Shown one piece after another: positions 17,301 to 37,000 of a stretch of 64,000 nucleotides of DNA. The stretch's first letter is position 1; the number at the start of each line of letters is the position of its first letter. Made by a program: the position numbers and the translations under genes. This stretch comes from a virus. The stretch spans positions 1-64,000 of the IMG/VR virus record IMGVR_UViG_3300044712_002699. The stretch is one strand, 5' to 3'. The notes below the pieces were generated by a model. It was not told where the DNA came from. It ran no database searches and was given only the letters and a program-made list of their open reading frames with translations.

Positions 17301-20300
17301 TCCAATGTGAAGCTTTGAGGAATAAGTGGAGACCACCTATACGCTTTATGTTTTCTCTCCAAGTCATAGCTTTGAGCCGACTCAGCCTCATTAACGATCA
17401 AAGTATCTCTCAATAACTTGATATCTGAAACGTACGCGCCGCTAAGAGAGGGTGCCGGTTCACAAAAGTTAAATGGCACATCGGGTGCGGCACAAAAGAA
17501 GAATTCAGAAACCCACTCACACTTTTCACCAGTAGCATCTAAGATATCGGCTCCGTCCATTCTCCACCTGTAGACGTTGCCACTGTCTCGACGGATTTCT
17601 ATCTTAAACCATTTCCCTGCCGGTATGGTTGTGTCAAACAAATCGAAGGTTTGAGTTATAAGAGGATTGCCTGTTGGTATATCTAGTAATGTATATTCCA
17701 ACACTCGCCCCTCCCGTATGGCGGCTTGAACCTGACCTAAGTTTACCCTGAGATCGAACAGCACAATTTCTCTATCCACTAATTCAGATAATTCAGGAAA
17801 CCTCAAATAACAAGAAAATGAGAAACGGAGCCCAAGCTGCCAGTCATATGACTCGTAATCAAAAACCGGAAAACCAGACGTAGTCATAATACTGGTAGGG
17901 TTACCGTAAGGATCAACTATGTTTTCTACTGAAGACCCTAAGCCCGGGCTTACCTGATGTTGAAATGGTTCACAGGAGAAAAAATGACCCACAGCGGGAA
18001 TAGTGGTTTCTGTAAGGGGAACACTCAACATTACAGTCGAACCCTCTTGTGCAGACGGGGCTTCTCCAAAATATCGAATCGATTTGTTAAAAATATTTAT
18101 TTTCAAGTACGCGCTATGATCTTCAAACCAAGACTCTTGAATAGAATACCCCTCCCATGACTCAAAATTATTTGTCAGAGGTTTCAAAATTACGTGCCAT
18201 GTTCCTATATAAGTAGCCCGGTAATCGCCTGTCAAGAACATAGTCTGATCTAAGTCATGCTTAGCGGGCGTAACAAAAATCTGGTTTCGGTACTCTGGAT
18301 CGAATAGGCTCCACTTGTGGTCTCTGCTGGAAATATAAACGTGATAGGCCCCCGACTCATAACGATCCATTGTGTAGGGAAGACCGTTCTCAAAATACAG
18401 AGGTGGTCTTAAATCAAGGATCCCAAGACTCAACCTGCGTTCACGAATATATGTGAGATAACCGCTTATAGTACTGTAATATGTATCCGGGCTTCGGTAA
18501 ACAAGATCGTTTTGACCCGCGTCCCAATGAAGAGCCGGGCCAACTTTACATCGATACGCTCCCAAGAAAGTATCAGAACTCTGAATGTCCAGCACTGTCC
18601 ACTCAGAACCGTCCCACTTGATAACAACCCCATCTCCTGCGGCATAGACGTTGTCCGGGTTTGTTCCATGTACAGAGAAGAGATTAGAGACAGTTGGAGA
18701 GTCCATCTCGCCCCACACGGTTCCGTTAAAATAGAGAATTTTACCTCCGTCCCCGACAACAAATACGTCCCATCTAGAATGAGCCCAAGCGCCGTTGAGC
18801 CGTTCTGTAACAAATTGAGGGGCCTGTAAGAATGGGCCGCTTATTATATTACCCGAGAACAAAAACCCAATATACCCGTCATCCCCCACAACAACCGTGA
18901 AGGGATATTCTCCAGCAACAGTTGACACTCCATTGAGACGAGTTCCTGTGTACGCACATCTATTCCAAACAACATTTGCGCTTCCCACGCCTCTATTGAG
19001 AACCCTTCCATTCTCTCCCACAGCAATTACCATCTCGTGAGATGCTGAGACTGCTCTCATACCATCCGTAATTGGAGGAATATACTTCTCCCACACCTCT
19101 CCAACAATAAACATCAAAAACTTAGCATAACATCGAAACCTGAAATATCTAGATGGAGGTTCTGGCAAAACATAGTTGTTGTAAAGAATAGTTATTGGCT
19201 GCCAATAATCTGTCCAATCTTTCTGCCAAGTCTTACCGCTATCTTCAGAAACCAATATGGTAGTAGCAAGTCTAACATCCGGTAATAAAGAGGGCTGGTC
19301 TACCGGATCACCGACGCAGTAGATATAACCGTGTTCTGACGTAATCCCCTGGAGATGAGAGGGCTGGAAATCGAGTTGCTCCTGAGTAGGGGACACATCG
19401 CTCCAGTTATTCCCGTCCGCCGATTCGTTGTAATAACCAACATAACAATCCTCGCCACAAAAAAGAAGATTGTTCTTGTCGAATGTCGTATCGAAAGTAA
19501 CACCAAGCCAAGTATTGATACCAACCGGCTCAGACACCTGAGTAAACTCTGGGTCTCCTGAAACCGTCTTGTGGTATCGGTAACATTGCGACCCAGCGAG
19601 ATATAAGTCTTCTACAAGAGTCCCAGCGTTGGTCGGATCAAGGGTACACTTACTGATGTACCCGTCTTCAACAATTAGGTCTACTTCACCAACATATTTT
19701 GCTCCAATCTTATGGATCGGCTCCTGATAAATGGGGAAAGTGAGGTGAAATTCATCCGTTGATGCATCTATAAGAAACAACTGGTTTCGATAACCAGGAC
19801 ATAAAATATCCCATCTCTGAGTATTGGCTCCGACATAAACGTGATACTTACCAGTCTTGATGGCTTCAGTTCTCAGGTAATTGTACAGAATTCGACCATG
19901 TCCTAATGGGTACCGAAAGTTAGTAGCAGATGAGGAAACTGTTAAGTATCTGGTATCTACATTTGTCCCAGCTATCAGTTCAACTTCGTAGCCGATATAC
20001 ACCAAGTGACCGTGGACAAGATGAAGCCGAGTCGTTGGATTGTCAAGGATAGTTATTGTGGCTATCCTGGCTTTCTCCCTTGTAAAAGGGCTTACCACTT
20101 CTTCTAGATCAACATCAACATTCCCTACATACGCAGCCCCAACCCCTCTGTCTTGACCTATATTTAGTGAGAATAAACTATGATGACCCGGTCGATGACA
20201 AAAATCACTGCTGGATTCTACGAGAAAAAGATCACCCCGATAACCTACTCTTACAGCATCCCACTCTTCCTGGTTGGAGGCTATATACACATTACAGTTT

Positions 20301-21007
20301 ATCGTAGAAGTCGAAGATAATGGGTCGTAAACTTTTCTGGCATTGATCTGTAAAGGTTTTCGGAAGTCTCGTTTATCCGCCTTCAACGTTACGTACGCGG
20401 TAGAAACTTCTGTATCACCAACAAGTCTGGTGGGGGATACTCCAGGATCGTCCAGAACCAATCCACCAGGAATCTCAGAAAGATAAGGGTCGCTACCTTC
20501 CAACACGATTACGTTGAACCTAAAACCGCTTCCGTCAATTATCCTCGCGTTTATCCTAGCAGACCCTAAATGGAGTCCATAAACTCTTCGTTTTACCTGA
20601 CCATCTCGTATGATAACAGGTAAATTCAGAAGGTTTCCGTCGTTAGGAGTAGAGAGAGAAAGGAAAACCTGTCCTCGATAAACTTCGGGCCAATAGACGG
20701 TCGTGCTCGCAAGATAAACCTGATAAGTGCCGGGAACAAACTCTTCCCAATCGAGACGCGCCGATCCAGTAGTCCTCCACGTAACCTTTAAGATAGGTCT
20801 ATACTTACCCATACCCTGTCTTAGGGTTAAAAAAGAGGCAGGAACATCAGTACCACCTATCGGGAGAATAAAATTAGGGTCTGATGACTCATACTTTAGA
20901 CCCTCATACTCATCCAGGTTCAAGCCAGGATCGTAGGCTATCAAGTTCGTAATTTTAGGAGACGGTAAAGTATCTCCAAGCACAGTTATAGTAGGGTAGT
21001 AAGGCAC
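14396..21007 (-). CDS. Giant modular putative virion fibre/appendage protein, paralog C (2203 aa)
   Basis: About 10 copies of a G.Y.VY[IL]AS..W...Y.G.LFL...A..[VI]G.V module; inserted beta-propeller-like repeats (VVGDGGKILYFNG..W) and a LamG-like domain; C-terminal domain shared with paralogs. Confidence 0.8.
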   Translation of the reverse strand: MPYYPTITVLGDTLPSPKITNLIAYDPGLNLDEYEGLKYESSDPNFILPIGGTDVPASFLTLRQGMGKYRPILKVTWRTTGSARLDWEEFVPGTYQVYLASTTVYWPEVYRGQVFLSLSTPNDGNLLNLPVIIRDGQVKRRVYGLHLGSARINARIIDGSGFRFNVIVLEGSDPYLSEIPGGLVLDDPGVSPTRLVGDTEVSTAYVTLKADKRDFRKPLQINARKVYDPLSSTSTINCNVYIASNQEEWDAVRVGYRGDLFLVESSSDFCHRPGHHSLFSLNIGQDRGVGAAYVGNVDVDLEEVVSPFTREKARIATITILDNPTTRLHLVHGHLVYIGYEVELIAGTNVDTRYLTVSSSATNFRYPLGHGRILYNYLRTEAIKTGKYHVYVGANTQRWDILCPGYRNQLFLIDASTDEFHLTFPIYQEPIHKIGAKYVGEVDLIVEDGYISKCTLDPTNAGTLVEDLYLAGSQCYRYHKTVSGDPEFTQVSEPVGINTWLGVTFDTTFDKNNLLFCGEDCYVGYYNESADGNNWSDVSPTQEQLDFQPSHLQGITSEHGYIYCVGDPVDQPSLLPDVRLATTILVSEDSGKTWQKDWTDYWQPITILYNNYVLPEPPSRYFRFRCYAKFLMFIVGEVWEKYIPPITDGMRAVSASHEMVIAVGENGRVLNRGVGSANVVWNRCAYTGTRLNGVSTVAGEYPFTVVVGDDGYIGFLFSGNIISGPFLQAPQFVTERLNGAWAHSRWDVFVVGDGGKILYFNGTVWGEMDSPTVSNLFSVHGTNPDNVYAAGDGVVIKWDGSEWTVLDIQSSDTFLGAYRCKVGPALHWDAGQNDLVYRSPDTYYSTISGYLTYIRERRLSLGILDLRPPLYFENGLPYTMDRYESGAYHVYISSRDHKWSLFDPEYRNQIFVTPAKHDLDQTMFLTGDYRATYIGTWHVILKPLTNNFESWEGYSIQESWFEDHSAYLKINIFNKSIRYFGEAPSAQEGSTVMLSVPLTETTIPAVGHFFSCEPFQHQVSPGLGSSVENIVDPYGNPTSIMTTSGFPVFDYESYDWQLGLRFSFSCYLRFPELSELVDREIVLFDLRVNLGQVQAAIREGRVLEYTLLDIPTGNPLITQTFDLFDTTIPAGKWFKIEIRRDSGNVYRWRMDGADILDATGEKCEWVSEFFFCAAPDVPFNFCEPAPSLSGAYVSDIKLLRDTLIVNEAESAQSYDLERKHKAYRWSPLIPQSFTLDWMPETKFDLGTEQSYQVYIAGIEDCWDELNHYYKGQLFLINSIIDPEGSYLVLNLDKKPAYCINVGKITATFQQVIDDFTQAFGHRCVKISIEEGSDDHLGITPDNILYFSDSVDTTRSINLKDVDVSYLEIRLPLFNYKDIMSLKILGGALDVQNFEPGDYYVYIGSDEDTWDSVNPDYRANLYLSKDIPATDNFLTIPLETGSITSKCIGKVSLSLEEETTHPNYHLLTGESSDRLNYVDTIDPTIEVGGYLVDVSDLSLLTSGGRYRLPLDPGGEDSVASRVQGIFGEYNVYIADNNPKWVLAGMGYRSQLFLSRAEPDPSSNLLNVLISYGGEYVQALKVGRVNVEWRSNYDLGIVTTWLKYSITLKDPHHLKLSVTEDGDLIFRSSSKLIVCGTYVNASYLTLREGAGKFRSPLVKDSVDLFSSIHNIDTGDYGVYLAPASSEWKNYAGKLFLSNLDSVIIDGKEVLQIPGLETWAIKLGEVTVTWEVIPYPMTTKPVIELDDQFPLSERLVLEDGVLAYDATTSIPFIPTAEGCIRLGYKWKSSLDLGFGVYRQPLKVVSGTATRPRYLSWEPGTYYVYVASIDREWEEYMMEMFLCPDAPLTTNQVFWSQETDEVVKTHYAYCLGRVNVRPSPYLYLHPYYFIATSIDTDIAGLTLSKFGGIVFRDVEEVRFVDGEQVPTLSLSYDPSSETSNFGLKKGLDGNLMKTPLFEGDWSLYLCSAKPAWGTLDLNADLFVSQLRPENGVLSVSVNNETVEALYLGKINLKDHSTSYTGMIVDWVTTPLKALDGDPPPLYYEMKNLGTVTKLPVGGTLVVAFTVPDAVAFGYPFSISLDCFTQSPFGSTMRVRFESWILGSEVDFAQTISSGVVEVPPVSSEFYSTYEYHLFSDSDPKTTNITKAFRVSDEIGCVGGLQIAPGDTLVTKIRFLDDSLFEEQSNSIARYDFFIKKVSLMYKAYYKA

Positions 21008-21018
21008 ATCAAATCCTT

Positions 21019-23742
21019 TTACTCGTCTATAGACAAGTAATGGCTAATCCTAAAATTGGAAAAGAAAAGTCGATGGACAGGGAATCGGTAAAAATACGAC
21101 TCTCCATACTGAGAAATTATACCCCAGCTATTTTCTGACTCCCTAAATGACATAATATAGTACTCTCGATTCGGAGAATCAGTTTCAAATAACGTTCTCG
21201 AGTATTGATACTCACACAAATCCCCATTTACGTCCCGAAGAATCTTCCAGTCTTCGTTTGAAGGTTTGATGTAAATCCTGATAATGGAGCTTGCTTTTTC
21301 TCTCTCGAACCGAAATCCCGTCACATAACCTTCGGGCGGAAAAATAAAATCAGGCCCCATATCAAATGGCATCCCCTCCACCGTGATACGCCCATACGAT
21401 CCACCGACTTCGTTACCGTTATAATAGGCTAGAGTAATCTCCCACGGAACAATGTTATCCTCAGTATCTTCAACCGCGTAACCAGACAAGATTGTTGATG
21501 TAAATTGAACCTGGGGAAATTTCATAAATAGCTCGACTCGGTATCCCTGAGACATTCTCATAGGATCTCTTCCAAGACTCAAGTCAGGGTGTACTATTAT
21601 CTTCACTTCTTTAAATTCGTACCCGCCGCCGTCTTCTGTTAAGGCATAAGAACTAACTCCAAGACACATACCCCCATCTTGCTGAGGCAAGTAACCCATA
21701 GACCCCCCACAATACACAAGAGAGGGAGACCATCCATACTCCCAATGCACGTCACCATACTCAGAAGTACCGGGGATCAACTCTGTAACTACAGTAGAAG
21801 CACATCGATATGTTACACAGAGTTCTCGAAAAAATTGCTCGGTCGTTAAAAAACCAGGACTCCCAGACTCAGATTCACAAGGAATACTGGTATCTTCGTA
21901 CCGGGTAAACGCATTTGCTAAATAATAGAACCCTGTAATCCAGTCATACTCTTCTACCGGGGCTGTACTCATAGCACCGGCACAGTCAGAGATATAGAGA
22001 GGAGAAACCTTTGTTGGGAGAGAGGTTCCTTTCTGTATCTTTATGTTTTTATAGTAGACCTTACCGTTATTACAAGAAAGCAAAGACGATTCAACCCCAT
22101 AACTCTGTGAACCAGTAAAGAAAGAGTCCGTGTCCCAATAAACGTCACTCTCCCAACCACAATATCTAGATCGCCTATCAAGAAGCACCTCATCGTTAAG
22201 GTACCACGTATAGGCATTCGTATCCTTATTTCTTGTAAGAGTTAACTTGAACCAAGAGTCGATAGGAATTGCTGAGAGATTTAATGCAAACTTGGCACAA
22301 AAACTCCCCCAGTTAATCTGAGACGCCTCGCTGTGAAAGACCCAAAATTTTCCAACTCTACTAAAACGAGCAAAAAACCAAGTTTCCATAGAAGGCATAA
22401 AAGGTTGAGGAGGCTGTTCCGAGGTAGAAAAGCTAAATAATGAAACACTCAGAGTAGTATATGTTACGTGAGAATCGATAAACAAATCAACATCAAATAT
22501 AAAGTTGGGGCCAGTAATAAAGGTATCTACGTTTCCTCCGTCAACAGTATTCAGATCTAAAATTACAAATCCCTGCCCGGCTCCTGTCATATATGCAGTA
22601 TAAGGCAAGCCCGTCCGGTCATCACTAGCTGCGGTAATAGTAATTGATCTATCAAAAACTTCGTCCTTAATAGTTCTCGTACCAACAGAGGGTATCTCAG
22701 TAAGAGGCAACTCAAAACTTGTCATTGGGTAAGGTATATAAGCAAAATCTTTCTTCCACAGGTCACTGGGAGTTGCTTCAGGTGGAGGCGGAGTAGTGGT
22801 CAGGGGCTCTGAGATATAAAAGATATCTACGGCGTACTCTTCATTAGATGACTCTCCTCCAAGATAATATATCTTATTTTGATACCCCACACCAACATGA
22901 GCCTCTCGATGAGTCCCCCCGTCAAGAATCGAACTCCAGTGTCCTATAGAAGGGTCGTACATCTCGTTATATGATGGGATAATACCTACGTCAAACGAGC
23001 CAGACCATACAAAGATACGATTCGCAATAACAGCACCAGCAGTATCACTTCGACCTGTAATGAGACCTGGACCCAGGGACCACGTAGAAGTCGAAAAGTT
23101 GAATATTTCTACTAAATTTTCTCTGTATTTAGCAAGAGAATTTCCGCCTATAGTAAAAAACTGGTTATTCAGAACAAGCCCTAAACCGAAAACTCTCCCA
23201 GTACCTCCGCTGACGCCCGATGTCCACTGACCTGTTGTGAAATCGAAAATATCCATAGAAGTAAAAACGCGCTGGTCATTACCCCAAAATCGCCTATCTG
23301 TCCCTCCCCACGCGTACATCTTTGTTCCGTAAACACCGCAACAATGTCCGAAGCGAGGTTGTCCTCCTGTAAGAGCACCTGTCCAGGTGTAATTACTAAA
23401 ATTGAATATATCCATTGTGTTCAAAACAACTTCACTGTAATAGTCTGAAACACCTCCCCATACATACATGTTATCATTGTAAACAACCGCGGAATGGTAT
23501 CTACGCGGAGTCGGGGCCTCTGGGCCTAGTGTCCAGACTCCATCGGCAATATCCAAAATATAGAGATTATTCGAGATGTGGTCGGTATCATTTGGATCGG
23601 TTCCCCATCCACCGAAATAGAATATCTTACCGCCATACTGAACAGCGGATCCCCACCCTGTCGGGTACATCTCTAGAGACATAGCAGGTCCGACAGACCA
23701 ACCATAAGATAGCGGAGATATTGTACGGGTTGTTTGAGTCAT
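21019..23742 (-). CDS. Kelch-repeat beta-propeller protein with LamG-like C-terminal domains (907 aa)
   Basis: About six Kelch blades (IFYFGG, MYVWGG, MYAWGG, FFTIGG, IFVWSG, IYYLGG with downstream W), then a TTTPPPP linker. Confidence 0.85.
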   Translation of the reverse strand: MTQTTRTISPLSYGWSVGPAMSLEMYPTGWGSAVQYGGKIFYFGGWGTDPNDTDHISNNLYILDIADGVWTLGPEAPTPRRYHSAVVYNDNMYVWGGVSDYYSEVVLNTMDIFNFSNYTWTGALTGGQPRFGHCCGVYGTKMYAWGGTDRRFWGNDQRVFTSMDIFDFTTGQWTSGVSGGTGRVFGLGLVLNNQFFTIGGNSLAKYRENLVEIFNFSTSTWSLGPGLITGRSDTAGAVIANRIFVWSGSFDVGIIPSYNEMYDPSIGHWSSILDGGTHREAHVGVGYQNKIYYLGGESSNEEYAVDIFYISEPLTTTPPPPEATPSDLWKKDFAYIPYPMTSFELPLTEIPSVGTRTIKDEVFDRSITITAASDDRTGLPYTAYMTGAGQGFVILDLNTVDGGNVDTFITGPNFIFDVDLFIDSHVTYTTLSVSLFSFSTSEQPPQPFMPSMETWFFARFSRVGKFWVFHSEASQINWGSFCAKFALNLSAIPIDSWFKLTLTRNKDTNAYTWYLNDEVLLDRRSRYCGWESDVYWDTDSFFTGSQSYGVESSLLSCNNGKVYYKNIKIQKGTSLPTKVSPLYISDCAGAMSTAPVEEYDWITGFYYLANAFTRYEDTSIPCESESGSPGFLTTEQFFRELCVTYRCASTVVTELIPGTSEYGDVHWEYGWSPSLVYCGGSMGYLPQQDGGMCLGVSSYALTEDGGGYEFKEVKIIVHPDLSLGRDPMRMSQGYRVELFMKFPQVQFTSTILSGYAVEDTEDNIVPWEITLAYYNGNEVGGSYGRITVEGMPFDMGPDFIFPPEGYVTGFRFEREKASSIIRIYIKPSNEDWKILRDVNGDLCEYQYSRTLFETDSPNREYYIMSFRESENSWGIISQYGESYFYRFPVHRLFFSNFRISHYLSIDE

Positions 23743-23757
23743 TGCTAATAAACCACT

Positions 23758-25035
23758 TTACGGGCCGGGGTTTTCTGTTGTCGAAGTAAGAATAGTGCCC
23801 GTCGTAGTAGTGGAAAACGTAGTTGTCGTTGTGGTAGAAGAGGACTTTTCCATAGCCGTCTCAGTAGAGTCCAACTCAACGAGGAGTGAAGGACCTCCTG
23901 AGGGCCGCTTAACGATTGCTGCCGCTCTCCGAATACTAATAGGAACCTTGCCAAGAGAAGCCATTTCATCAGGTATCAATTTGTTAAGAGGATTAGATTC
24001 TAAAGAAACAAAAATGTTATCGCCCACAGACGGCATAATCCCTCCGATAACACCGTTTTCAGTTGATATCTGAAATATCCTGTTGAGTCCAAAACCCGTC
24101 AACTCTCCTGATGGCAAAACGCCTATCATACTGCCTTCTGCGGTATAAAAATACCTATCCGGCCAAATGGGGATATCTACTCGACCCGACTGAACCATCT
24201 TGTTAATGTCTACACTTTTGGAAACAACCCAAGACTTCAAAACAATCTGGTCATAATAATCCATTACGTCTCGGTCAGTTTCAAACTCAATACCGAAATA
24301 TATCGGGTTACAGTTCAAAAAATCCGGTTGCCAAACAAAACCGCAGATAAGGGATCCTCCAGAATACCTTGATTCCGTTGTCACGCCTGATACAATTATC
24401 CTCTTCGAGCCGCCCGACGTATTGAGAATAGTAACAGGTTGCTCGACATAACTTAGAGGTCTATTCAGCTCGAAACTCCTGGTACTCTTAATCTTAACTT
24501 CTGCGAGATAAAGAGCCGTAACCGGAACCCCTCCTATCCTCCCTTTCAAGAGAGGAAGATCGTCATCATTGATTGGCTCCTTAGAAGCAATTATTGCCCC
24601 GCAATAGTGACGACCCAAAACTTTCCACTTCTCGTGAGCCGAGGTGAGGTAAAGATAGTAAAGAGAGGAACCGTAACCTTCATAATCTATTGTAAATTCC
24701 TCATTTTTAAGATAGAGAGGGGGGTTCAAGGCACTAACCGGGGAAAATGATAGACGAACGGTATCGAGAACAGTATCGTCAAGCATCAAAAACCTAGTGT
24801 CTCCCTCATTCCGGTAAATAAACTCTCCGGTATGGAGAAAGGCTTCTGTTGGCCCATCAATAATCCTAGCCACAAACGATCGGACGTCTCCTTCCGAGGG
24901 TACTAAATGATATTTACTATACCTAACCCTAACCATTCCAACCTTGGCGGATCGAATATCAAGATCCGCCCCGCCTGTATCAGATGGATTGGCGACCCAC
25001 CACCACCCGCAATCATCACTTGACCAAATACTCAT
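23758..25035 (-). CDS. C-terminal portion of giant paralog B (425 aa) with a Thr-rich tail
   Basis: Contains the end of one module (SAKVGMV), one full module (YYLYLTSAHEKW) and the family C-terminal domain (SGG...SW...G.IGG...GD); ends SSSTTTTTTFSTTTTGT. Confidence 0.8.
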   Translation of the reverse strand: MSIWSSDDCGWWWVANPSDTGGADLDIRSAKVGMVRVRYSKYHLVPSEGDVRSFVARIIDGPTEAFLHTGEFIYRNEGDTRFLMLDDTVLDTVRLSFSPVSALNPPLYLKNEEFTIDYEGYGSSLYYLYLTSAHEKWKVLGRHYCGAIIASKEPINDDDLPLLKGRIGGVPVTALYLAEVKIKSTRSFELNRPLSYVEQPVTILNTSGGSKRIIVSGVTTESRYSGGSLICGFVWQPDFLNCNPIYFGIEFETDRDVMDYYDQIVLKSWVVSKSVDINKMVQSGRVDIPIWPDRYFYTAEGSMIGVLPSGELTGFGLNRIFQISTENGVIGGIMPSVGDNIFVSLESNPLNKLIPDEMASLGKVPISIRRAAAIVKRPSGGPSLLVELDSTETAMEKSSSTTTTTTFSTTTTGTILTSTTENPGP

Positions 25036-25044
25036 ACTAGTCTC

Positions 25045-25257
25045 TTATCCACCAATGCCGCCGCTGAATGTTATGTTAGACTGGGCCAAGAAGATTTTTC
25101 CTGCATAGTCTCCCCACTCTTCTCGTAACGGCCCTACACAGACACACCAGTATCCAGGAACTAGGGGAACTCTTTTTATAGACCACGTAAAAGTCGGTTC
25201 TGTGTCTTCTCTTGGTATCGATCCAGCAGGATCTCTCTGTTTTAGATCACTGTCCAT
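25045..25257 (-). CDS. 70-aa fragment carrying the middle of a giant-protein module
   Basis: SD AAGGAG and ATG at 25257 overlapping the GT2 end; PGYWCVCVG...EEWGDYAGKIFL matches the module core. Confidence 0.7.
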   Translation of the reverse strand: MDSDLKQRDPAGSIPREDTEPTFTWSIKRVPLVPGYWCVCVGPLREEWGDYAGKIFLAQSNITFSGGIGG

Positions 25258-26017
25258 TACTTTTCTCCTTAGATATAAGAATAAATTGAGGCATAATATT
25301 AACATCAAGGAAAAACTTATCTTGAAGACCTCTCCTAACGATAGCCCGCTCGATTGCTTCTTGGGAACACTTAATTTGCTCCATTCTATGCTCCTTCGTA
25401 ATAGAATTTCTATGAACTCGATGATAATGGAGGAACCTTTTTAATTGATAGACACGTGTAATTTCACATATCCGTAGACAGAGGTCATAGTCAAAACTAT
25501 AACGTATCGACTCATCAATTCCGCCAACACTGTCATAAATTGATTTACGTAGGAGGCGAAAGTGAAACGTAAGAAATTCTGTCAACATTCCTAAATCTGT
25601 ATAGGGTAAAAGCGAACTCCTTGATTTACCTACAATCCTACCGCACTCATCAATTAGTTTACAGTGGGTATAAACTAAACCTACATCAGGAAAAGCGTCC
25701 AAAACTGCAACTGTTTCTGTAAGCGTCTCTCTATCTATCCTGTCATCACTATCAACCCACCCCAAATACTCGCCCCTCGCTTCTCTAGCAGCTAACAGCA
25801 GCGGATAAGGCGTGCCTAAGTGGTGATGATAGATAACTCTCATTCGGTCATCCATAGCCTCATAGTCTCTCAGAATATCTATTGACTTGTCAGTTGAGCC
25901 GTCATCCCACACAATAAACTCGAAGTCTTCAAAATCTTGACATAAAACACTCTCTAAAGACCTCGCAAGATACTTCTCTCTATTATAAACCGACATTAAA
26001 ATTGATACTTTAGGCAT
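25247..26017 (-). CDS. Family 2 glycosyltransferase
   Basis: VSILMSVYN, WDDGSTD, GEYLGWVDSDD (DxD), FDYDLCLR; TAATG overlap with the upstream stop. Confidence 0.95.
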   Translation of the reverse strand: MPKVSILMSVYNREKYLARSLESVLCQDFEDFEFIVWDDGSTDKSIDILRDYEAMDDRMRVIYHHHLGTPYPLLLAAREARGEYLGWVDSDDRIDRETLTETVAVLDAFPDVGLVYTHCKLIDECGRIVGKSRSSLLPYTDLGMLTEFLTFHFRLLRKSIYDSVGGIDESIRYSFDYDLCLRICEITRVYQLKRFLHYHRVHRNSITKEHRMEQIKCSQEAIERAIVRRGLQDKFFLDVNIMPQFILISKEKSNGQ

Positions 26018-29000
26018 TAAGCTTCTGGCCCCGGTCCTGACCCTACCGCGGTGATAAAAAGCGGAGGTCGGTACGACACCGGCCCTAATCTAATATGGTC
26101 ATAGACAGAGGGCGAGTCAAGAATTTGAGTCTCCCAAACACCGGGGAGCCAAGTTGGGTCCGGGCCATTCCACCTGTATTCAATATCATACTTGTCATCC
26201 GTAACATTCAACATCTCGGAATGCGGGCCAAACATATCGAATACAAAGAGAGGTCTAAGAGTAGAATACTCCTCATATGTTACCTCAACACCAACCTTCC
26301 CTAATACAGAGAGCGTAAAACCCTCAATCATATTTACTATTAGATTCGGGTCGAGTTTTGTGAAAAAAACAACACTATCGGTTCCCGTAGAACTCTGTGT
26401 GACGAGACGATTATAATCCCCGAACAACACACTGTAGACGCCATCCATCCACAAATCTTCGGAAAATACAAGAGCATCAAGTACTAAATAGTCACCGCTA
26501 TATGCACCTGCATTTCTGAACCTGACCACTGTGAGTGGCTCATATCCAACTTCTTTACAAGGAATTCCTACGCGACCGAAAGCGTAGAAATACAGCGACC
26601 GATCTGGATCAAGGTATTTAGTTACTCCCTCGAAATGCCCCCGGTTAACATTATCCCACTCCCAGGAACGAATTAACCCCCGCCTGTTTTCAATATCTAC
26701 CTGGTTCTCGGAGGAGATAGTGATTGAACGAGAAACAGGTTCTTGTTCTCTTGTAATGGCATTAACTGTTATGCCTCGTACAGACGGCTGAGATTCTCCA
26801 TCTGAAACAAGTCCGAAAACAACGTCTGCTCTCTCAAGACTTACATCTATTCTTTGCCATGCATCCTTAGCAAGATCGGTAAAGTAAAGACTCGGACTTT
26901 GATTGAAGGATATTTCCATAGCCTGTCTGAGACAGGAGAGTAAATTGTTCTCGCTGGCAGCCTCCCAGGCATTATCCTTGTTCTTAAATTGCCAAATATG
27001 CACATCCGTATACTGTGCTATATCTTTCCACGCGCCTGAAATAAAAATTTTCCACGTCTTCTTGCGATCGAAAGAAAAGGCATAAAAAATAGAACATTGA
27101 GGAGGCACGTGTTCAAGAAAAGAAACAGATCGAATCTGAGCAATATTGGTAAGATCGATATAATGGGATGATGCAGTAACCGCGGTGGAAACCTGCTTCG
27201 GACTCTTTAAATTCCCACCCAAGTCGTAAGATACCATCGTCAAACCATTCACAGGAGAAACCATAAGGTGTGTTACGCTCCTCACATTTCCATCTAAATG
27301 ATCTACGGAGGAGGAAACATCGCCACTACCTGATCCGTCCCCGGTTATACCTAGAACAAAAAACTCCTGACCGTCTTCCAACCCTATGAGAGAATATTCT
27401 TCAACTAAGGTATTATCTACACCAATTCTAATAATCTGTTTAACAGTAGAGTCTTCCGTTATGGCGTCTTCAGCCCACTCTTCCCTGATAATTATTTCAT
27501 TTTCTCGAGCAGCCGACACTGCTGTCAGCGGAGGCCGGGGACGCCCAGGACCAAGTCTCGTACACCAAAGTTGAGGATACCGCTCCTGCTCACCAGGTAC
27601 CTGGGACCCGGGGCTCTCCCTAATCCATTCATCGTCAGGTGTTACAGTACTATACTTATCCATTATCTCAATAGGATCCATTTTGATAACACGATACTTG
27701 TACATCTGCTTTTGACAATTCCACTCAAAATCAACTGACCCAACCTTAATGGCTTTCAATGAAATCCCACTATCCGTAGTATAGTACCTTATGCCGTTCA
27801 CGGGGTCACAGTCATCGGTTGATAAAAACATTGAGGCTCGGTAACCATACTGGAAATCAGACCAGTCGGATTTATCGGGAGTAAGGAATACATTATAAGT
27901 CCCGCCCAACTCTTGAACTACACCTACTGTCCCGTTGTTTGTATCCTCTAAAAGAGGGAGCCTATACCGACCAGGAGCATCCAAAAGAGAGATACCGGAT
28001 ACATCAACCTCAGTAGCGTCAATCTCTAAAACAGGATCAATTACATCAGCATATATTAAATCCCCCTTCAGGGCATCGTAACTTAATTGATAAGAGGCTT
28101 TCACTGAATATTTTGAGAGATGAATATCAACCGAACCCATAAACTCCGCTTCCAAATAAACATTACTACCGGTGTCGGGATCTGCATAAGGTATGCGGAG
28201 TAAATCATTCCCGTCAGGTTCTTCCGCAGCCAAAAACATCTTACCTTTATAGTTTCTTCCGTTACTTACCTGGTACAACCAATCCCGTTGGTTAGACCCC
28301 AAAAAGATGTTATATTTCCGTTCCTCGAAAACCCCCTCTCCCAATGCTTCTATCAAATCTGTGGGCCTTAAAAAATGGTGTTGGTAATGAAAAACCGGCA
28401 AATGAAGATACTGGGGATTATCCCACTCACCTCCGCTCTGACTCAACCAATCGGCTTCTACATAATAGGTATCATCGAGTTCTTTGTCATAAAAAGCATT
28501 TCCGTAGTGATCGATAAAGAAACCTCTGGGAGCAGAGTCAGGATTCCCTAATGGTATATTTTGTTTGTAAAAATCATTCGTCTTAACCGACTCGATCCTA
28601 TGTCCCTTGGTTCCTGTATAAGGGTCTTCAGAGGTTTTAAATACCCAAGAGAATGACCCTAAGGAATAAAGAGCTACGGGAAACTCTGTCCTCGGGTTTG
28701 TAGAGCCGGGAGAGGGATCCATACCTGAATTATTGTAGTAGGATAGCGCAGCCCACGTTGGTCTTAAAAACATCTTACCGGGATAGTCTGCATGAACGAG
28801 AGACCACTCTGACTTTAGAGTAGCAATAGCCGTATCATATCGCGTAGTGTAGGCATCAAAGTATTCGTAACCTAATGACAATCCCCTAAGATACTTAAAA
28901 TCAAAAAGAATAACAGGTCTATACGAATCTTGAGGAAGTTTGAGCCTTAATAACTCTACAGAGATTGGCTCAAAACCAATATCCTCGGTTGCTCCGGTGC

Positions 29001-31002
29001 CTCCAGTAAATATGATGTCATTATCTTGTCCTAGACTTAATCGTGGATCACTTCCCTCTAGTATCTTTGCTGACGTTATTCGGTATGTAGTATCTCCTGT
29101 GTAGGAGTTAACAACTGTTTCTACTGAGAGAGTCGCCTGCCCAACATACTTGGCATTGATTGCACTTTGACCGGCCTGTATGTGCGGGAACCAGTCCTTA
29201 TCCGGATCCTCTGTCGCGTCTACAAGAAAAAGAACTCCTTCATAGTTTGTCTCCAAACCAAGTTCCGACCAATTTCTAATCCCTGAAATATATATGTTGT
29301 AAGTACTGGACTCAAAAATGGAACTCTGGATTAATCCTGTGAGATCCTTCGTGAGCGGGACTCGAAAATAGAATGACGTTCTTTTAAGGGTCAAACCCTT
29401 TGCCACAACTCGATAGCCGTCAACCTCAGTCCAAGGAGCCTCATCATTAAAGACAATTTCATTGTTGTCATCAACAGTTAACCGGGGATCTCCTGAATAC
29501 TTATTATTGAAGATTACTCGGGCAATACCAGTGCCATCCTCAGACATAATGATACGAGCACTTGTCAAATAGATGGCATGTAAGGATTGATCGATTCCAT
29601 ACTTAAGAGGGAAAACCTCTTTAAGCTTAACCGTAGAAGTTACCGGGACTCCCTCCTCGGTCTTATAAGGATCTATTTGACTCGAGTACCAAAAACCCGA
29701 CCTCTCCTTGAAGAACTCCGTATTCATTACAAAATCAGTTTTTGGATCGGTTAAGAAAAGGTTTCCCTTAATACCCTCTCCAAAGAGCTGATCCCACGCC
29801 TTTTGATCCGACGCCAAGTAAATATTGTAATCCCCCGTCACTAAAGTTTCATAGGAAAACCTTGGAGTAGTGTAGCGCGCAGCGTGTAGGCAGGGTCTAT
29901 AATGAAACACTGAAAGTAGGTTCGATAAACCGTCAACATTAACGACAGTGCCCCCTATAACTCGAGTGGGTTGTTTGTTGTCTACAAAAATTAACTCCCC
30001 GTATGAATGCGGGTCATCGGGTGCGGCCCAATTAAGACGATCTCCCTCCACGTCTCTCACAATTTTACAGTAATTACAGAGATGCCCTGTAACCGTACTG
30101 TCATAAGGAGATACGACAGTTCGGAAAGCCATTGAAACCTCTCCAATATAAAGAGCATCGAGGTAAATGCCGCTTCCTATGTAGCGAGGGAATAAGAGAG
30201 GATCCCCCGTGTCGTAATCCTTATCAATAAACAACATTTGACCCTTATACAGGGGGTTTACGAGATCCCACTCAGACTGATTTGATGCTATATATACTCG
30301 ATAGTTATGAGGAGCCGCTGGCAAAGATTGCACCTCAAACGTTTTTGTGGGATCATAAAAAAGCGGTTTTCTAAATCTAGAAAAACTAACATTCAGATAC
30401 AAGTATTCAGAAGGAGTAGGAATTCCGGCCACGGGAATAGTAGCGCCTGGGTTAAGATCCTCATAAATAATGGTATCATTGTCAACTCTAATATTCGTTA
30501 AGTAAGGATCAGTTATAACCACTGAATAAGACATCTCCGTCTGACCTAAGTAACGGGCATTTATTGTAACATTTGCCATTCTCAATGCAAAGAGAATCCT
30601 ACTTTCCGACACAGGTATTCTCAACATATTTGTCGGATAGTTGGGAAACATCTTCGACAAAAACATCTGTCCACTTAGATAACCCCACCCCTGTTGGTCA
30701 GCCGCCAGATAAAGGTACCACTCCCCCGGTTCCGACGCCTTTATCTCCTTGATCGTCCAAAGGCTTGTGTACTCGTTCTCTTCGAACTCAAGGGGATAGC
30801 TGACCTCACCAATACCAAGCTTCAGAGTTAAGCGATGAAAATACACCGCAGTATTTCCTATAGTCTTAGGAGGTCTAGTCTCATCATCAAAATATAAAAC
30901 GTGATCTCCGTCAACAACTATTGGATAAATTGCCTCCAGATTCTTCGCTTCCGGCTTCTGTATTGTGTTATCTAAGATCGTTATTGTGGGTGTTACAGGC
31001 AT
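26017..31002 (-). CDS. Giant modular protein, paralog B N-terminal portion (1661 aa)
   Basis: N-terminus MPVTPTITILD resembles MPYYPTITVLG of paralog C; about 7 modules; ends at a module start (RLGPVSYRPPLF) and lacks the family C-terminal domain. Confidence 0.8.
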   Translation of the reverse strand: MPVTPTITILDNTIQKPEAKNLEAIYPIVVDGDHVLYFDDETRPPKTIGNTAVYFHRLTLKLGIGEVSYPLEFEENEYTSLWTIKEIKASEPGEWYLYLAADQQGWGYLSGQMFLSKMFPNYPTNMLRIPVSESRILFALRMANVTINARYLGQTEMSYSVVITDPYLTNIRVDNDTIIYEDLNPGATIPVAGIPTPSEYLYLNVSFSRFRKPLFYDPTKTFEVQSLPAAPHNYRVYIASNQSEWDLVNPLYKGQMLFIDKDYDTGDPLLFPRYIGSGIYLDALYIGEVSMAFRTVVSPYDSTVTGHLCNYCKIVRDVEGDRLNWAAPDDPHSYGELIFVDNKQPTRVIGGTVVNVDGLSNLLSVFHYRPCLHAARYTTPRFSYETLVTGDYNIYLASDQKAWDQLFGEGIKGNLFLTDPKTDFVMNTEFFKERSGFWYSSQIDPYKTEEGVPVTSTVKLKEVFPLKYGIDQSLHAIYLTSARIIMSEDGTGIARVIFNNKYSGDPRLTVDDNNEIVFNDEAPWTEVDGYRVVAKGLTLKRTSFYFRVPLTKDLTGLIQSSIFESSTYNIYISGIRNWSELGLETNYEGVLFLVDATEDPDKDWFPHIQAGQSAINAKYVGQATLSVETVVNSYTGDTTYRITSAKILEGSDPRLSLGQDNDIIFTGGTGATEDIGFEPISVELLRLKLPQDSYRPVILFDFKYLRGLSLGYEYFDAYTTRYDTAIATLKSEWSLVHADYPGKMFLRPTWAALSYYNNSGMDPSPGSTNPRTEFPVALYSLGSFSWVFKTSEDPYTGTKGHRIESVKTNDFYKQNIPLGNPDSAPRGFFIDHYGNAFYDKELDDTYYVEADWLSQSGGEWDNPQYLHLPVFHYQHHFLRPTDLIEALGEGVFEERKYNIFLGSNQRDWLYQVSNGRNYKGKMFLAAEEPDGNDLLRIPYADPDTGSNVYLEAEFMGSVDIHLSKYSVKASYQLSYDALKGDLIYADVIDPVLEIDATEVDVSGISLLDAPGRYRLPLLEDTNNGTVGVVQELGGTYNVFLTPDKSDWSDFQYGYRASMFLSTDDCDPVNGIRYYTTDSGISLKAIKVGSVDFEWNCQKQMYKYRVIKMDPIEIMDKYSTVTPDDEWIRESPGSQVPGEQERYPQLWCTRLGPGRPRPPLTAVSAARENEIIIREEWAEDAITEDSTVKQIIRIGVDNTLVEEYSLIGLEDGQEFFVLGITGDGSGSGDVSSSVDHLDGNVRSVTHLMVSPVNGLTMVSYDLGGNLKSPKQVSTAVTASSHYIDLTNIAQIRSVSFLEHVPPQCSIFYAFSFDRKKTWKIFISGAWKDIAQYTDVHIWQFKNKDNAWEAASENNLLSCLRQAMEISFNQSPSLYFTDLAKDAWQRIDVSLERADVVFGLVSDGESQPSVRGITVNAITREQEPVSRSITISSENQVDIENRRGLIRSWEWDNVNRGHFEGVTKYLDPDRSLYFYAFGRVGIPCKEVGYEPLTVVRFRNAGAYSGDYLVLDALVFSEDLWMDGVYSVLFGDYNRLVTQSSTGTDSVVFFTKLDPNLIVNMIEGFTLSVLGKVGVEVTYEEYSTLRPLFVFDMFGPHSEMLNVTDDKYDIEYRWNGPDPTWLPGVWETQILDSPSVYDHIRLGPVSYRPPLFITAVGSGPGPEA

Positions 31003-31003
31003 A

Positions 31004-34000
31004 TTACCCCTGCTCTTCGCTCTCTACCGGATGAAAAAGAAACGTTAGAGAACTAATAACTGGCTCCGGAACTATCTGGAGTGTTTTATTCGAGACCACA
31101 GCATTGCTCTTAACTACAACCTTCGCAATAATACTATCTCCAAGATTAACTTGCCGCTGCCCAATTCTACCGCTGTTGTCGGTGACTTTGAACATTTTGA
31201 TCCGACTATTCATAAGATCATCTAAACCAATTTCCTGTGTCAGTAAAAAGGAAGCATTATCTATCACAGGAGGAGGCTGACCCGAAACAAAATACTCATC
31301 CAAATCAATAGTATAGTCTAGACACCAACTGGTTATCTGTATGACACAATCCTTATTATTCAGATCAGGCGGAAGAATGAACTGCAGTTCGAGATAAATC
31401 GGCTTCCCTTCCGCGTAAATAGGCAACATTACAGCCCCGATATAAACCTCCCCTCCCGAGAAGAAGGAACGGATTCCCGAGTCTGGAACGACTGTTTCAG
31501 TGGCTATTGGGTTGGTTCCAGATACCACAGTACTCCCAAATCCAGAAAATTTACTCTCCGGCTGAGATTCGCTTGCTCTAAAATAAGTCACCTGGACTCG
31601 GCCTACTTTCCATGCCTGAACTTGCTCGCTACCTATGTAAGAGGTGAGAATATCCCCAACAGTGTTAGGCTCGGCTTGACATAAAAAGAGAGAGCCAATA
31701 TAGTCCAAACTTAGATCTTCCCATCCAAGTTCCATAGAAGAAACATACACATTATAAATCCCCTCCAAGAACTCATCAACTACGCTGATCTGACTTGTTA
31801 ATGGATCAAAGAATAGGGGTTTTCCGTTTCCATCCGAATAAGACCACGACATACCCAAAAGAACGACCTCTGTGGCCCGTATCGTCTTTTTCCAATTGTC
31901 CTCATCAACATATCTAAGGCTATTATCAGAAACAATCCTTAGATAGTCCGAGCCCTCAAGTATCTGCGCTGCCCCTGGATATACTTGTTCTAGGCTTTGA
32001 GAAGGCCCATACCTCAGTATAACTTTTCCAACACACCACGACCTAACCTCAGTAGTCTCAAAGAAACCGCTCCAACTCTTCTCACCAGATTTGTCGGGTG
32101 GTGACATGCTGAGAAATGCAGCATCCGAAAAACTCATCCAACGAACGTCTGGTACCGTTCTATAGATATAATATATACCAGCGTCAACCCTTTCGGCAGC
32201 AGGAAAGTGAGTTTCGTAACCGGGTAACGAAAGGGCTAGTGGCTTATCCTCAAATAATAACAAAACTTTACCTACTAATAATGGATTCACGCGATCCCCG
32301 TACTCATTGTACGGACTGCTACCACTATATACTGCAGCCCCGTCACTAAGGCAGTGATGTTCAAACTGTGGTAATCTCTCTTCCCAATACAAATCTTCCG
32401 AACTTTCTCCCACCTTGAGTTGAATATCGCTCCCAGGAAAAACATCAAAAATATAATTACCGTAGTTGCTAGTTAAGGTAAGTTCCTTCGTAGTCGAGAC
32501 GCGTCCTATACACAGAGCCTTTGCAAGAGTTATGGAAGAATCAAGAACATATTCCCCCTCAAAGAGAGACGGACTTTCTGAAGACAAAAATAGTTGGCCT
32601 GAAAAATCCTGCCAAGATGGATCACTAGGCGCTAAATAGAGATAGTAAGCCAACCCAGGGTCTATCTTAGTAACTTCTGGGTATCCACCTATAAGCCTTA
32701 GAGGATTTCTAAACTTACCAACGCCTGATCTAAGAGACTTAATACTGGAGTCAACGCACGTCCCTGATACCTCTTTAGGCCCCGGTCCTCTCAACAACAA
32801 GTCCCCGTCTTCTGTGACAAAAATGATATAAAACGTAAAATTATCAACTAAATAAAACTCTTTACTCAATCCCTCAACAACAACGGGAGATGTCCAACTG
32901 TGGGTTGGTACATCCGAAAGGGTAAGAAAAGAGAAGCCAAACTGCTCCATCTTTTGTCTCCGAAGACTTGACAGTTGACCGACATACCCGAGAACAATCC
33001 TGTGCTTCGTTAGGTTACGGACCACAATCTCCCAATCCCTAATATCCGACAATGAATAGTGACCCCCAGGAACGGTTCTATCGAGATCAGGATATATCCC
33101 TATTGTAGCATCCTCGTCCTGGCTAACCGTTGGGTCAATAAAAATTTCAGGCATCAACTCTGCCTTACTTGTTATCCAACTAGCAGCAACAGATTCCCCC
33201 ACCTTACAAGTCCCAATCTTGAAGGCTGAACAAAGTTGAGGATAATTCCACCAGGAAAAAGACGTAGCCTCTGGTGCCGTCAAATAGATATAACCATATT
33301 GATCCGGCTCTGCCTGTGATAAAAATATTCGCCCATCATAGCCCACAATGTTGGTAGCATCATACTCTGACCCAGCATCGCTGGTTTCTGTAGTAATGTT
33401 ATAAAAAAAGTTCTCATCCGCCATTTGGTAGATATAGTAAACCCCATCTTTCATGTCTACTTGCTTGGCAAAAGCAGCCTTATTCCACCTATCAAATTCA
33501 ACGACTTGGAGTGGATTAAATGTATCAGACGAATACTGGGTCTCTTCTACAGAGTCTGTTAAATATTGAGGAAGACAGAAAGGAACACCCTCAGAGGTCA
33601 CCAGTGTACCTAAGGATGTGTCTTCCGGGCTCCCCACCACTATTGAATTAGCGGTTTCAGTTCGTTGGACATTTATCAAAGGACTCTTACCAAGATTTAC
33701 CTCTTTCATCTGAACCTCAACAACTCCTACTAATTTAGAGGTAACCTCCCTCTCATAATACTCTATTCCCTTTATATCAAATTCAGTGATATCAATAATA
33801 TTGGCTCTATTTACTCCTCCAATACGAGCACTAGGCACCGCAGTAAGATAACCCACGGCACTCCCATCCCATGTCAGTAAGTACTTATGACCTTGTAAAA
33901 TATCATACCGCATCCAATCAGACCAAACATCAATTTCAGTTCCACTCATAGTGAACCCGCTAACTCCTCCAAAAGTAACTCTTATTTTGGGAGGGCTTGT

Positions 34001-37000
34001 TAGGAACCCATAAGTGTCTTGGTCTCTATATCCAAAGTGTGCTTGATTAAGAGAAAAGTCCTGATCCTGATAAGGTCGAGAAAACCGAAATCGTATATAG
34101 TTTCCGCTTGTAGTAAAATCCACAAACCTTCGAAATGTTCCTGAAACAGAGTCCCATCCATTTATACTGTCTGCGGATGTAAGGGTTGATTCCTCTTCCT
34201 CGAGAATATCTTTAACTTCGATACGAGTTATATCAGCAGACGCTGATGGAGAATAGAGCCCGTAACCGGAGACTGAATCCAGATGGGCCTCGCTGGCACC
34301 TCCTTTATAATACGTAGCCTCCTTAGACCCCCGGTTACCTATAGACAGACCCTCAGTATACAGTTGTAACCTCGACATCGCCTCTTCAGTAGGAATTGTT
34401 ACCCAATCTGACCACACTGACTCTGATCCTAAATCTAAGAATAGAGACGTATCTTGCCCCTCGTTGAAAGTGATCTGAGCCACAACTGGGTCTTCAATAG
34501 GTGGAGTATTAAATGCCCCCCATTCACCCACCCACACTTCAGAAATTAAAAGAGGCTCTTGTGCCAGGGGAGGGATAGTAAACTTAAATCTCACAACCTT
34601 AAACTCTTCTCTTGTGAAAATGTTTTGTACACAAGAAATAGTCTTATTTGTGGAGGGCGTATAGATTTGACGTGAAAACTCAGTAACGACAGAACCACCC
34701 TTCTTAGATTCAATACTAACGACATCACCATAAGTGTAAGTATCAAAAGACTCAGAGGGCTCATCAGTAGCAGCATTAGCAGCCGATCCAAAATAAAAAA
34801 CTCTTGGTTCGGGACAGAAATTTCCTATTCCGTACCCGTCCCACGAAAGAAGATAAGTCTTATAAGCCCAACCAGTGTCTGGCCCAGGAAAAGCATACGA
34901 AATCCAGTCTGACCAAACGGTTGTTGTAGTTCGCGGATCAATTACCACGGACGATTGTCCGCTAAACGTTACCCTTCTGACCAGTCCGGGAGTAGAAGTA
35001 AAGTTATGGCTCCAACTATACTCTGCGACACCAAAGAAACAGTTATAAATATTTGCTGGAACTATTGATCCGGGAGGGACGGAGAATTGAAAGCGTATAC
35101 GGGAAAAACTCGAGTACATGTTTAGGGCTCGTCTTATTAGAACCGGCTCAGATGAATTAAATTCGCTGTTAACAATGTTCGCTCTGAAGACTGTTCTTGC
35201 CTGACTGCTTTCTTCTACCTGAATCTCCGAGACGTCAAGTTTTTTAGTCGTATTCCCTGAACTGTTCCGGTATGCTTCTCCCACATCATCTTTGTTAAGG
35301 AGCCCGTATCCATCCCAAGAGATGAGGTAGTCATAAGAGGTATTAACAGAATAGTCTAACCAATCGGTCCACACCTCTGTTTTGCCGACTGACGCGTCTA
35401 ACACATACTGTGATCCCCCCGAAAAAGTTAGGGGTAATTTTCCTGTATAGAAGACGTAATTATAGTTTCGTTGCCCAAAATAAGCCTGGTTAATAATCGC
35501 GTAGCCCTTAGTGGACCCGCAGGGCAAGGAAAACTTGAATCTAACTCGATCAGAATCCTTAACAAAGGACACAACTTGTCTTACATGACACGCCGAGGCC
35601 GAGGACGCCGTCAGAGTATCGTAGTGACAAGACGCCGTGTCAGTCCCATCAAATGCCTCGACTTCAGAGAACGTACTGTACGTATAAGACGATTCAGAGA
35701 GTCTCGGTACGTCTTCTGAGGCTTGATTTGAATTTGATTCAAAAAACGTAGTCAAGAAATCTGAACTAAACCCGAAATCTACAGCCGATCCATCAAAGGC
35801 TAATAAATACTCAATATCCTCTGATATATCAAAATCTACCCAATCCGACCACACCGATGATCCTGGACTAATCTGTAATCCCTCGTTTGAGGAAAACGTC
35901 ACTTGGGATTTTAGGGGATCAGGAGCAAAAGCGTAAGACCCGCTCAGCTGTCCAAAGTAACACTGAGACAGAGAAAAATCGGTCACAGAACTAGTGGGAC
36001 AAGAAAACAAGAATCTGATTCGAGAAGCCGCTTCTCTGGGTCTAATCACGATACGAAACTCGGTATTCCTTGATACAATGTCTTTAGAAATAAACAGTGT
36101 ACTCAATCGATCAGGAAGTGTGGACGAACTAGTTTCAAAAAGTTGAAATTCATTGAATGATATAGAATACGAATACCACCGGGCACTAGCATAGAAGCGG
36201 TAGTATCTGTAAGCCGTAGTATTATTAAAAGTCAGAACGGCAAACTCAGGATAGTTACCCAGAGATGGATTAAAATACGTAGTGCTGTACAGGTTAACCC
36301 AGTTCGAATTATCATTTGATCCCTGTATTGCAAAGTCTCTTGGGGCGTAGTAGGAGCCACCAATCATATATCTAATCTTAGTGACAACTCTTGCATTGCC
36401 TGACCCGAGATCTATCTTCGTCCAATAAGGCGCTGAACCACTTATTGGATTTGATGTCGTAGTATTATCATCATAGACTCGATAAGCATAATTAGAACCA
36501 TCAGACTGAGAAACAACGGCAGGAGATGGAGATGAGTTAGCGTACATGCCCACATTGATTCTCCCCACTAAGTCCTGATTATCACTATACTCAAACCCAC
36601 CCACTACCGGTAAATTATAGAAGTTATCATAATCACCGCCAGGAAATTCTGCTGAATCAACCCCCCACACACCCGATTTTTTGAAAGCATACCTGTAAAC
36701 ACCTCCGGCTATACTACTTCTGTGCCCAAGATATCCTCCCTCATAAGAAACCATATAGGTCTTACCTTTTTGAATGCTAAATGTCCCCCAATCTGTCCAA
36801 GATGAACGAAGGTCTCCTATTAACTGTTTTCCACTACTACCCGAAAATGTGAGTTGGATTTTTGAAGGGGTCGAAGCAAAATGGTAATTAGTCCCAGGGG
36901 CCACTTCTCCAAAATAACAAGAAGTGAGGAGCATAGGCGACGCCGAATCCTTTCCAAACCTTACCCTTACCCCCATCGCGTCTCTAGGCGCTACCCAAGG

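Follow-up and report, generated by a model that had tools for sequence, protein, structure and literature searches.

A fibre-like phage gene in three pieces, interrupted within one repeat unit by a glycosyltransferase gene

Introduction

Phage genes that have been split into separately maintained cistrons by an inserted free-standing gene are described as genes in pieces, the examples being nrdA of phage Aeh1, split by mobE, the topoisomerase genes 39 and 60 of phage T4, separated by mobA, and gene 43A/43B of Aeromonas phage 25 (PMC2988022). The products of these genes reassemble into a working protein (PMC2988022); for the case reported here, reassembly is a proposal. It is located in a window of 64,000 nucleotides, which corresponds to positions 1-64,000 of IMGVR_UViG_3300044712_002699 (full IMG/VR record of 80.7 kb, provirus class, estimated 36% complete). 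In this window, a gene for a fibre-like protein is interrupted within one repeat unit by the gene for a GT2 family glycosyltransferase (referred to as GT2), and its pieces are kept as the three open reading frames (ORFs) p1661, p70 and p425, each named after its length in amino acids (aa).

This locus resembles the genes in pieces in that a coding region has been split into cistrons that are kept and that are separated by an inserted free-standing gene (PMC2988022). It differs from them in the nature of the insert, which is GT2, accompanied in relatives by a GNAT-like part, and not a homing endonuclease. It also differs in the nature of the split gene, which is a repeat-built structural gene and not an enzyme gene, and in the number of breaks, since two breaks leave three pieces of one small beta domain. 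A second class, the fractured genes, combines split inteins with a free-standing endonuclease and is mostly phage-borne (Dassa et al. 2009, PMC2677866); there, too, the two parts of a broken gene are separated by another gene. Unlike in fractured genes, the breaks in the window come without intein halves and without an intervening endonuclease, and thus without a mechanism for covalent rejoining.

In the donor-strand complementation of chaperone-usher pili, the next subunit donates a strand that closes an incomplete beta-sandwich, and the subunits are thereby linked into a fibre. The joint that we propose below would work in a like manner, without any relation in sequence or fold. It would differ from the pilus system in that three chains share one domain, and in that it originated from gene fission rather than as a built-in device for polymerisation. 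In the literature that we searched, no fibre gene has been described that is interrupted within a domain and made whole again by strand complementation. What is new relative to the known cases is a structural repeat domain that has been cut into three cistrons by cargo genes of sugar chemistry.

Results and Discussion

The pieces tile one repeat unit

p1661, p70 and p425 belong to a tight operon on the minus strand with the gene order p4329, p1661, GT2, p70, p425, p907, p2203. The features of this operon, in window coordinates, are as follows.

p4329 (P0006), 31004..43993, minus strand: unsplit giant paralog, the C-terminus of which is the shared C-terminal domain
p1661 (P0001), 26017..31002, minus strand: fibre-like protein with seven repeat modules, without the C-terminal domain of its paralogs
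Final 28 residues of p1661 (YDHIRLGPVSYRPPLFITAVGSGPGPEA), 26020..26103, minus strand: first-half strand and motif 1 of the repeat unit, then the stop codon
GT2 (P0004, 256 aa), 25247..26017, minus strand: GT2 family glycosyltransferase, PF00535
p70 (P0002), 25045..25257, minus strand: free-standing middle piece of the unit with motif 2 (PGYWCVCVGPLREEWGDYAGKIFLA), with its own AAGGAG and ATG
p425 (P0003), 23758..25035, minus strand: last strand of the split unit, one complete module, the C-terminal domain in common with p4329 and p2203, and a tail rich in Thr
First 42 residues of p425, 24910..25035, minus strand: conserved N-terminal piece that bears the last strand of the unit
p907 (P0007), 21019..23742, minus strand: Kelch propeller (Pfam Kelch families), followed by a distal domain
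p2203 (P0005), 14396..21007, minus strand: unsplit giant paralog with the shared C-terminal domain; residues 1444-1591 are the modelled repeat unit

With an iterated profile, 29 copies of a 98-position module were detected in three giant proteins, and the module profile was extended to the full unit of about 150 aa on the basis of 22 copies. The intact unit (p2203 residues 1444-1591) is predicted by AlphaFold2 to be a single all-beta domain, with a predicted local distance difference test score (pLDDT) of 86.5 and a predicted template modelling score (pTM) of 0.83. Several short strands up to a YRxPL segment are followed by a variable loop, by the GxYxVYxAS strand and by a short helix around a Trp residue; then come the xLFL strand, another strand, a loop and the long final strand (AxxVGxV).

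When compared to the unit profile, the tail of p1661 matches positions 57-71 (11 of 3000 shuffled sequences reach the real score), p70 matches positions 81-117 (E 2.5e-6, the score being reached by none of 3000 shuffles), and the N-terminus of p425 matches positions 135-152 (33 of 3000 shuffles). The three pieces thus follow one another along a single unit and do not overlap. In P0014, the orthologue of p1661 from a relative, the tail covers profile positions 32-71. A first-pass annotation of this DNA had placed the split within a single module, with p70 as its middle and p425 supplying its end, and the tiling bears this out, the pieces being collinear with an intact unit. Both breaks fall into loops of the AlphaFold2 model, one into the variable loop after YRxPL (motif 1) and the other into the loop ahead of the last long strand (residues 130-146).

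The p425 protein starts with WSSDDCGWWW, continues with the last strand SAKVGMVRVRY, and has its complete module at residues 99-182. Its residues 32-376 are collinear with residues 1867-2198 of p2203 (E 2e-12) and with residues 3982-4314 of p4329 (E 7e-12). The C-terminal domain proper is common to p425, p2203 and p4329 (E 4e-7 to 5e-5); p1661 lacks it. Profile and alignment together agree with the earlier statements that both unsplit paralogs end in a common domain missing from p1661, and that p425 supplies this domain along with the end of the unit and one more module. The WSSDDCGWWW segment was also considered as a degenerate motif 2; this was dropped, as the region of protein P0009 that carries the copy GGYTIWSSDD has an insignificant profile score of -1.3.

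In p4329, segment 3416-3432 fits as the final strand of a unit that has its first parts near residue 1630, the joined sequence scoring 111.9 bits against the unit profile compared to 108.9 bits for the native continuation. This suggests that the loop before the last strand, where p70 and p425 are separated, may be able to hold a very large insertion in cis. The insertion in p4329 may be a long array of WSDW-type domains together with an F5/8 type C domain (window 33700-39100), which would then occupy, in one repeat unit, the same loop as the break between p70 and p425, with segment 3416-3432 fitting the missing strand.

The repeat unit has no sequence matches in Pfam, in PHROGs or in 50,697 GenBank phage records, and a Foldseek comparison of its fold to PDB and BFVD yielded nothing at E<=0.001. 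The best structural neighbours (VIA-align) are beta-sandwich domains of phage receptor-binding and fibre proteins, namely those of Bordetella phage Mtd (1yu0, Z 4.4), of lactococcal phage p2 (2wzp, Z 4.0) and of the cyanophage A-1(L) fibre (8kec, Z 3.4), a weak likeness that is below the usual noise level. AlphaFold2 returned a poor model for p425 (5-row alignment, pLDDT 43.7), from which nothing was read. A prediction of the three-chain complex (p1661 residues 1480-1661, p425 residues 1-200, and p70) scored 0.00 against a mark of 0.32 and was counted neither way.

Gene junctions and the glycosyltransferase

Each piece is a cistron of its own with a separate start, and all of them lie close together in one operon. 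The stop codon of p1661 and the start codon of GT2 overlap in TAATG, and the end of GT2 overlaps the start of p70 by 11 nt. A Shine-Dalgarno sequence (AAGGAG) is found 7 nt upstream of the p70 ATG, and the junction between p70 and p425 reads TAA GAG ACT AGT ATG. The coupling, the ribosome binding site, the spacer and the common reading frame of p1661, p70 and p425 had all been listed in the first-pass annotation and were found to be correct. No direct or inverted repeats that flank GT2 as a transposon-like scar were found, and terminators or promoters between the pieces were not convincing.

The assignment of the intervening gene as a GT2 glycosyltransferase also stands. Its match to PF00535 has an E-value of 6.7e-27 (94.9 bits compared to a cut-off of 23.3), and a DXD-type motif, WVDSDD, was read from the sequence. 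The gene has 771 nt and shows 61% aa identity to a GT2 fragment on contig L005, a relative described below. The target of the enzyme may be either the fibre proteins (e.g. their Thr-rich linkers) or a host glycan. The Thr-rich, mucin-like tail of p425 (SSSTTTTTTFSTTTTGTILTSTT, window 23758-23850) adjoins the GT2 gene region, and a TTTPPPPEATP linker occurs in p907 (window 22750-22800), near the GT2 gene; both are possible sites for O-glycosylation. Upstream of its own ATG, the p70 frame has no stop codon over about 60 codons (window 25247-25441), where it overlaps the end of GT2, and the open frame comprises 131 aa. A frameshift fusion of GT2 and p70 is conceivable, although a slippery site is not evident.

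Break points and selection in relatives

The protein family is rare, with 6 proteins among 1.84 billion representatives. No more relatives were found in the viral contigs, genome contigs and GenBank phages that were searched, and the metagenome scan provided one 2.4-kb contig (L005). P0014 (1980 aa) is the orthologue of p1661, with 73% identity over the first 1237 aa. It terminates in ...YDHIRLGPISYRPPLLLTASGGGKEHE and has the same break point as p1661, after the YRPPL motif, with 14 of the 15 core residues of the p1661 tail being identical. On the other side of the insert, P0008 (74% identity) and P0010 (57%) start at the same residue as p425, with WSSDDCGWWW. Across five relatives, down to 32% identity, 13 residues between p425 positions 7 and 39 are invariant. 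On L005, the end of the GT2 gene is followed by an ORF of 230 aa, the last 50 residues of which are the p70 sequence, then by a TAG stop codon, a gap of 13 nt and the start of P0008 (MADYETVWSSDDCGWWW). P0014, P0015 and P0008 are reported on a contig of equal length (34,367 bp), and for this relative the gene order upstream of GT2 is one that we infer.

For p70, p425 and GT2, DNA of the relative is available for comparison on L005. Synonymous sites are saturated, the proportion of synonymous differences (pS) being 0.82-0.86. The proportion of nonsynonymous differences (pN) is 0.17 for p70 (pS 0.86), 0.16 for p425 and 0.26 for GT2 (pS 0.85), corresponding to pN/pS ratios of about 0.2-0.3. These three genes, which the test covered, are under purifying selection. 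The core of the p1661 tail and the N-terminus of p425 are among the best conserved parts of their proteins. As the break points are equal in a relative with saturated synonymous sites, the split is old and stably inherited, and the arrangement has outlasted saturating synonymous divergence. In addition, a contig from an independent study (wastewater runs, labelled RNA-Seq and probably DNA) spans window positions 24974-25191, and thereby the junction of p70 and p425, with 2 substitutions and without any indel.

A second fission or fusion has occurred in the same operon (window 21019-25035). P0008 (1005 aa) consists of a p425-like part that is directly fused to the distal domain of p907, residues 428-1005 of P0008 showing 60% identity to residues 326-906 of p907. 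In the window, the Thr-rich linker contains at the equivalent place a stop codon, 15 nt and a separately started Kelch propeller. In relatives, the Kelch domain is found elsewhere, within P0014 and at the N-terminus of P0011.

The middle piece and its GNAT-like partner

The first-pass annotation had treated the 70-aa ORF as a piece of the split gene. It is a selected gene that encodes the middle of the unit, which upholds part of this view. In two relatives, however, the p70 sequence is not free-standing and forms the C-terminal tail of a GNAT-like protein of about 230 aa (P0015, P0016). The GNAT part of P0015 reaches PF13508 with an E-value of 0.15 only, while its neighbours in the ESM Atlas are all GNAT proteins (score 0.96); for P0016, precomputed matches to PF13508 and PF00583 exist. 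The record of the window itself does not contain the GNAT part and has the tail alone.

The wastewater variant matches the window up to position 25191 and diverges upstream of it, where it reads DVLSRGSDDT as in the proteins with a GNAT part and tail. This suggests a putative mosaic boundary at the N-terminus of p70 (window 25191-25257). As the variant diverges towards GNAT-type sequence, this phage may have lost its GNAT part recently and in frame.

For motif 2, the identity among p70, P0015 and P0016 amounts to 92-96%, compared to 42% for the GNAT parts of P0015 and P0016. Inside intact units, motif 2 shows 69-79% identity between orthologues of similar or smaller divergence. The higher conservation of the free middle piece would fit a joint that is assembled in trans.

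Do the pieces rebuild one domain?

We propose that p1661, p70 and p425 are an old, stably inherited gene in pieces and that the three chains rebuild one beta domain without a covalent link, a proposal for and against which we see the evidence as evenly balanced. In this view, a long fibre-like protein consists of all-beta units of about 150 aa, and its gene was broken twice in one unit, at two surface loops. The breaking agent was a sugar-modifying cassette with GT2 and, in relatives, a GNAT-like acetyltransferase. To a single beta-sandwich, p1661 would contribute its C-terminal strands, p70 the central ones and p425 the strand at its N-terminus, and this joint would link the proximal part of the fibre (p1661) to its distal part, which is p425 followed by p907. 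With a middle piece that has a GNAT part, the joint would tether the enzyme to the fibre. The reassembly of three polypeptides without a covalent link, which the first-pass annotation had offered as fragment complementation, is what we infer from the sequences. A more specific version, which we regard as rather unlikely, is a three-chain plug-in joint, in which the p1661 tail and the distal N-terminal strand form an incomplete beta-sandwich that would close only with the middle piece. The latter would be an exchangeable adaptor that may carry an enzyme (GNAT in relatives), and the joint would provide a socket for the distal forms P0008, P0009 and P0011. If true, this would place a sugar- or protein-modifying activity on the virion fibre.

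Several points weigh against reassembly. The profile matches of the p1661 tail and of the p425 N-terminus are short and individually weak (E 0.02-0.03 in a single comparison). An insert of 22 residues (WSSDDCGWWW...) between the end of p70 and the last strand is unmatched in intact units. Database searches did not reveal an unsplit orthologue, and the ancestral unsplit state is deduced from paralogs that are only about 21% identical. Finally, P0009 and P0011 hold a p425-like unit (first strand and DDCxWWW) behind unrelated N-terminal domains and have neither motif 1 nor motif 2 in the same protein. In view of this arrangement, the first strand of p425 may be part of the domain that follows it and do without a partner.

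The last point leads to an alternative that we consider possible rather than probable, namely that the pieces are independent proteins which never rebuild one domain and that the break is the remaining trace of an old insertion of the cassette. In this case, p1661 would end in a partial unit, and the p425-like proteins would be self-sufficient distal fibres with an N-terminus that docks elsewhere. The motif-2 tail would be a fibre-binding tag or a chaperone-like peptide for the GNAT enzyme, left behind in this phage after the in-frame loss of the GNAT part. The architecture of P0009 and P0011 is as expected from such independence, and so is the occurrence of the motif-2 piece as the tail of a GNAT-like protein in two relatives; moreover, the GNAT part is missing from the record itself, and the wastewater variant implies that its loss may be recent. 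Against this view stand the ordered tiling of one unit by the pieces and the conservation of all three junction pieces, which exceeds that of their surroundings; also, p70 has kept its start, its Shine-Dalgarno sequence and an intact frame despite the loss of the enzyme part.

Reassembly of separate chains also has to be distinguished from a rejoining at the level of RNA or translation, or by protein splicing, which the first-pass annotation had offered as an option. Readthrough of the TAA codon between p70 and p425, bypassing or RNA splicing across GT2, or protein trans-splicing could be suspected from the layout in the window, where p1661, p70, p425 and the next gene p907 share one frame (starts at 0 modulo 3), with GT2 in another, and where only four codons separate p70 from p425. 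On L005, the equivalent ORFs (302-1006 and the one starting at 1020) are in different frames, with the 13-nt gap between them. The frame relation is thus not kept, which argues against a rejoining of the pieces by RNA or translation. TAA followed by G is an efficient stop, and GT2 is a conserved gene under selection. An Rfam scan of window positions 23000-32000 by E-value showed no group I or group II intron, with only a chance match that resembles a microRNA, and Pfam detected no Hint or intein domain in p1661, p70 and p425. Only 12 residues follow motif 1 in p1661. From the different frames on L005, the negative Rfam and Pfam results and the selection on GT2, readthrough, bypassing and splicing of RNA or protein are unsupported, and we consider all of them very improbable. 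For two further ORFs, the chance to fall into the frame of the first is 1 in 9, and the frame that p1661, p70 and p425 share in the window is best taken as a chance event.

A recent decay, or a mistake in assembly or sequencing, with small ORFs that are meaningless, would be suggested by the oddity of the 70-aa ORF and by nothing else. It can be dismissed as the least probable explanation, as the same break points recur in independent metagenomic proteins and contigs, pN/pS is about 0.2 at saturated synonymous sites, and a contig from another study spans the junction of p70 and p425, in agreement with the earlier view that this is not simple decay.

If the pieces do reassemble as we propose, they would represent a natural three-way split of a small beta-sandwich, which would be of interest to protein engineering. 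They would also exemplify a novel means of connecting fibre segments and of attaching enzymes to the virion, and would imply that giant fibre genes can be broken and reshuffled at loops without loss of function. The locus also calls for caution in annotation, as the 70-aa ORF is a selected gene while the same-frame layout that resembles recoding appears to be a coincidence.

Source of the DNA and neighbouring genes

The source is a large tailed phage. Among the phage genes encoded are those for a major head protein, a head maturation protease, a collagen-like tail fibre, HNH endonucleases and a NAD-dependent ligase. The major capsid protein (window 3112-4563) shows 36% identity to its best GenBank phage matches, which are Rhizobium phages of about 200 kb; for the giant fibre proteins, GenBank phages gave no match at all. 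The low identity of the capsid protein and the unmatched giant fibres point to a probably uncultured lineage.

Just upstream of the block of giant genes, a protein of 361 aa (window 44539-45624) is made up, as judged by PHROGs, of segments of the Lar-like, endonuclease VII-like and HNH types. Another protein, of 688 aa (window 10535-12601), matches PHROG families that are annotated as kinase.

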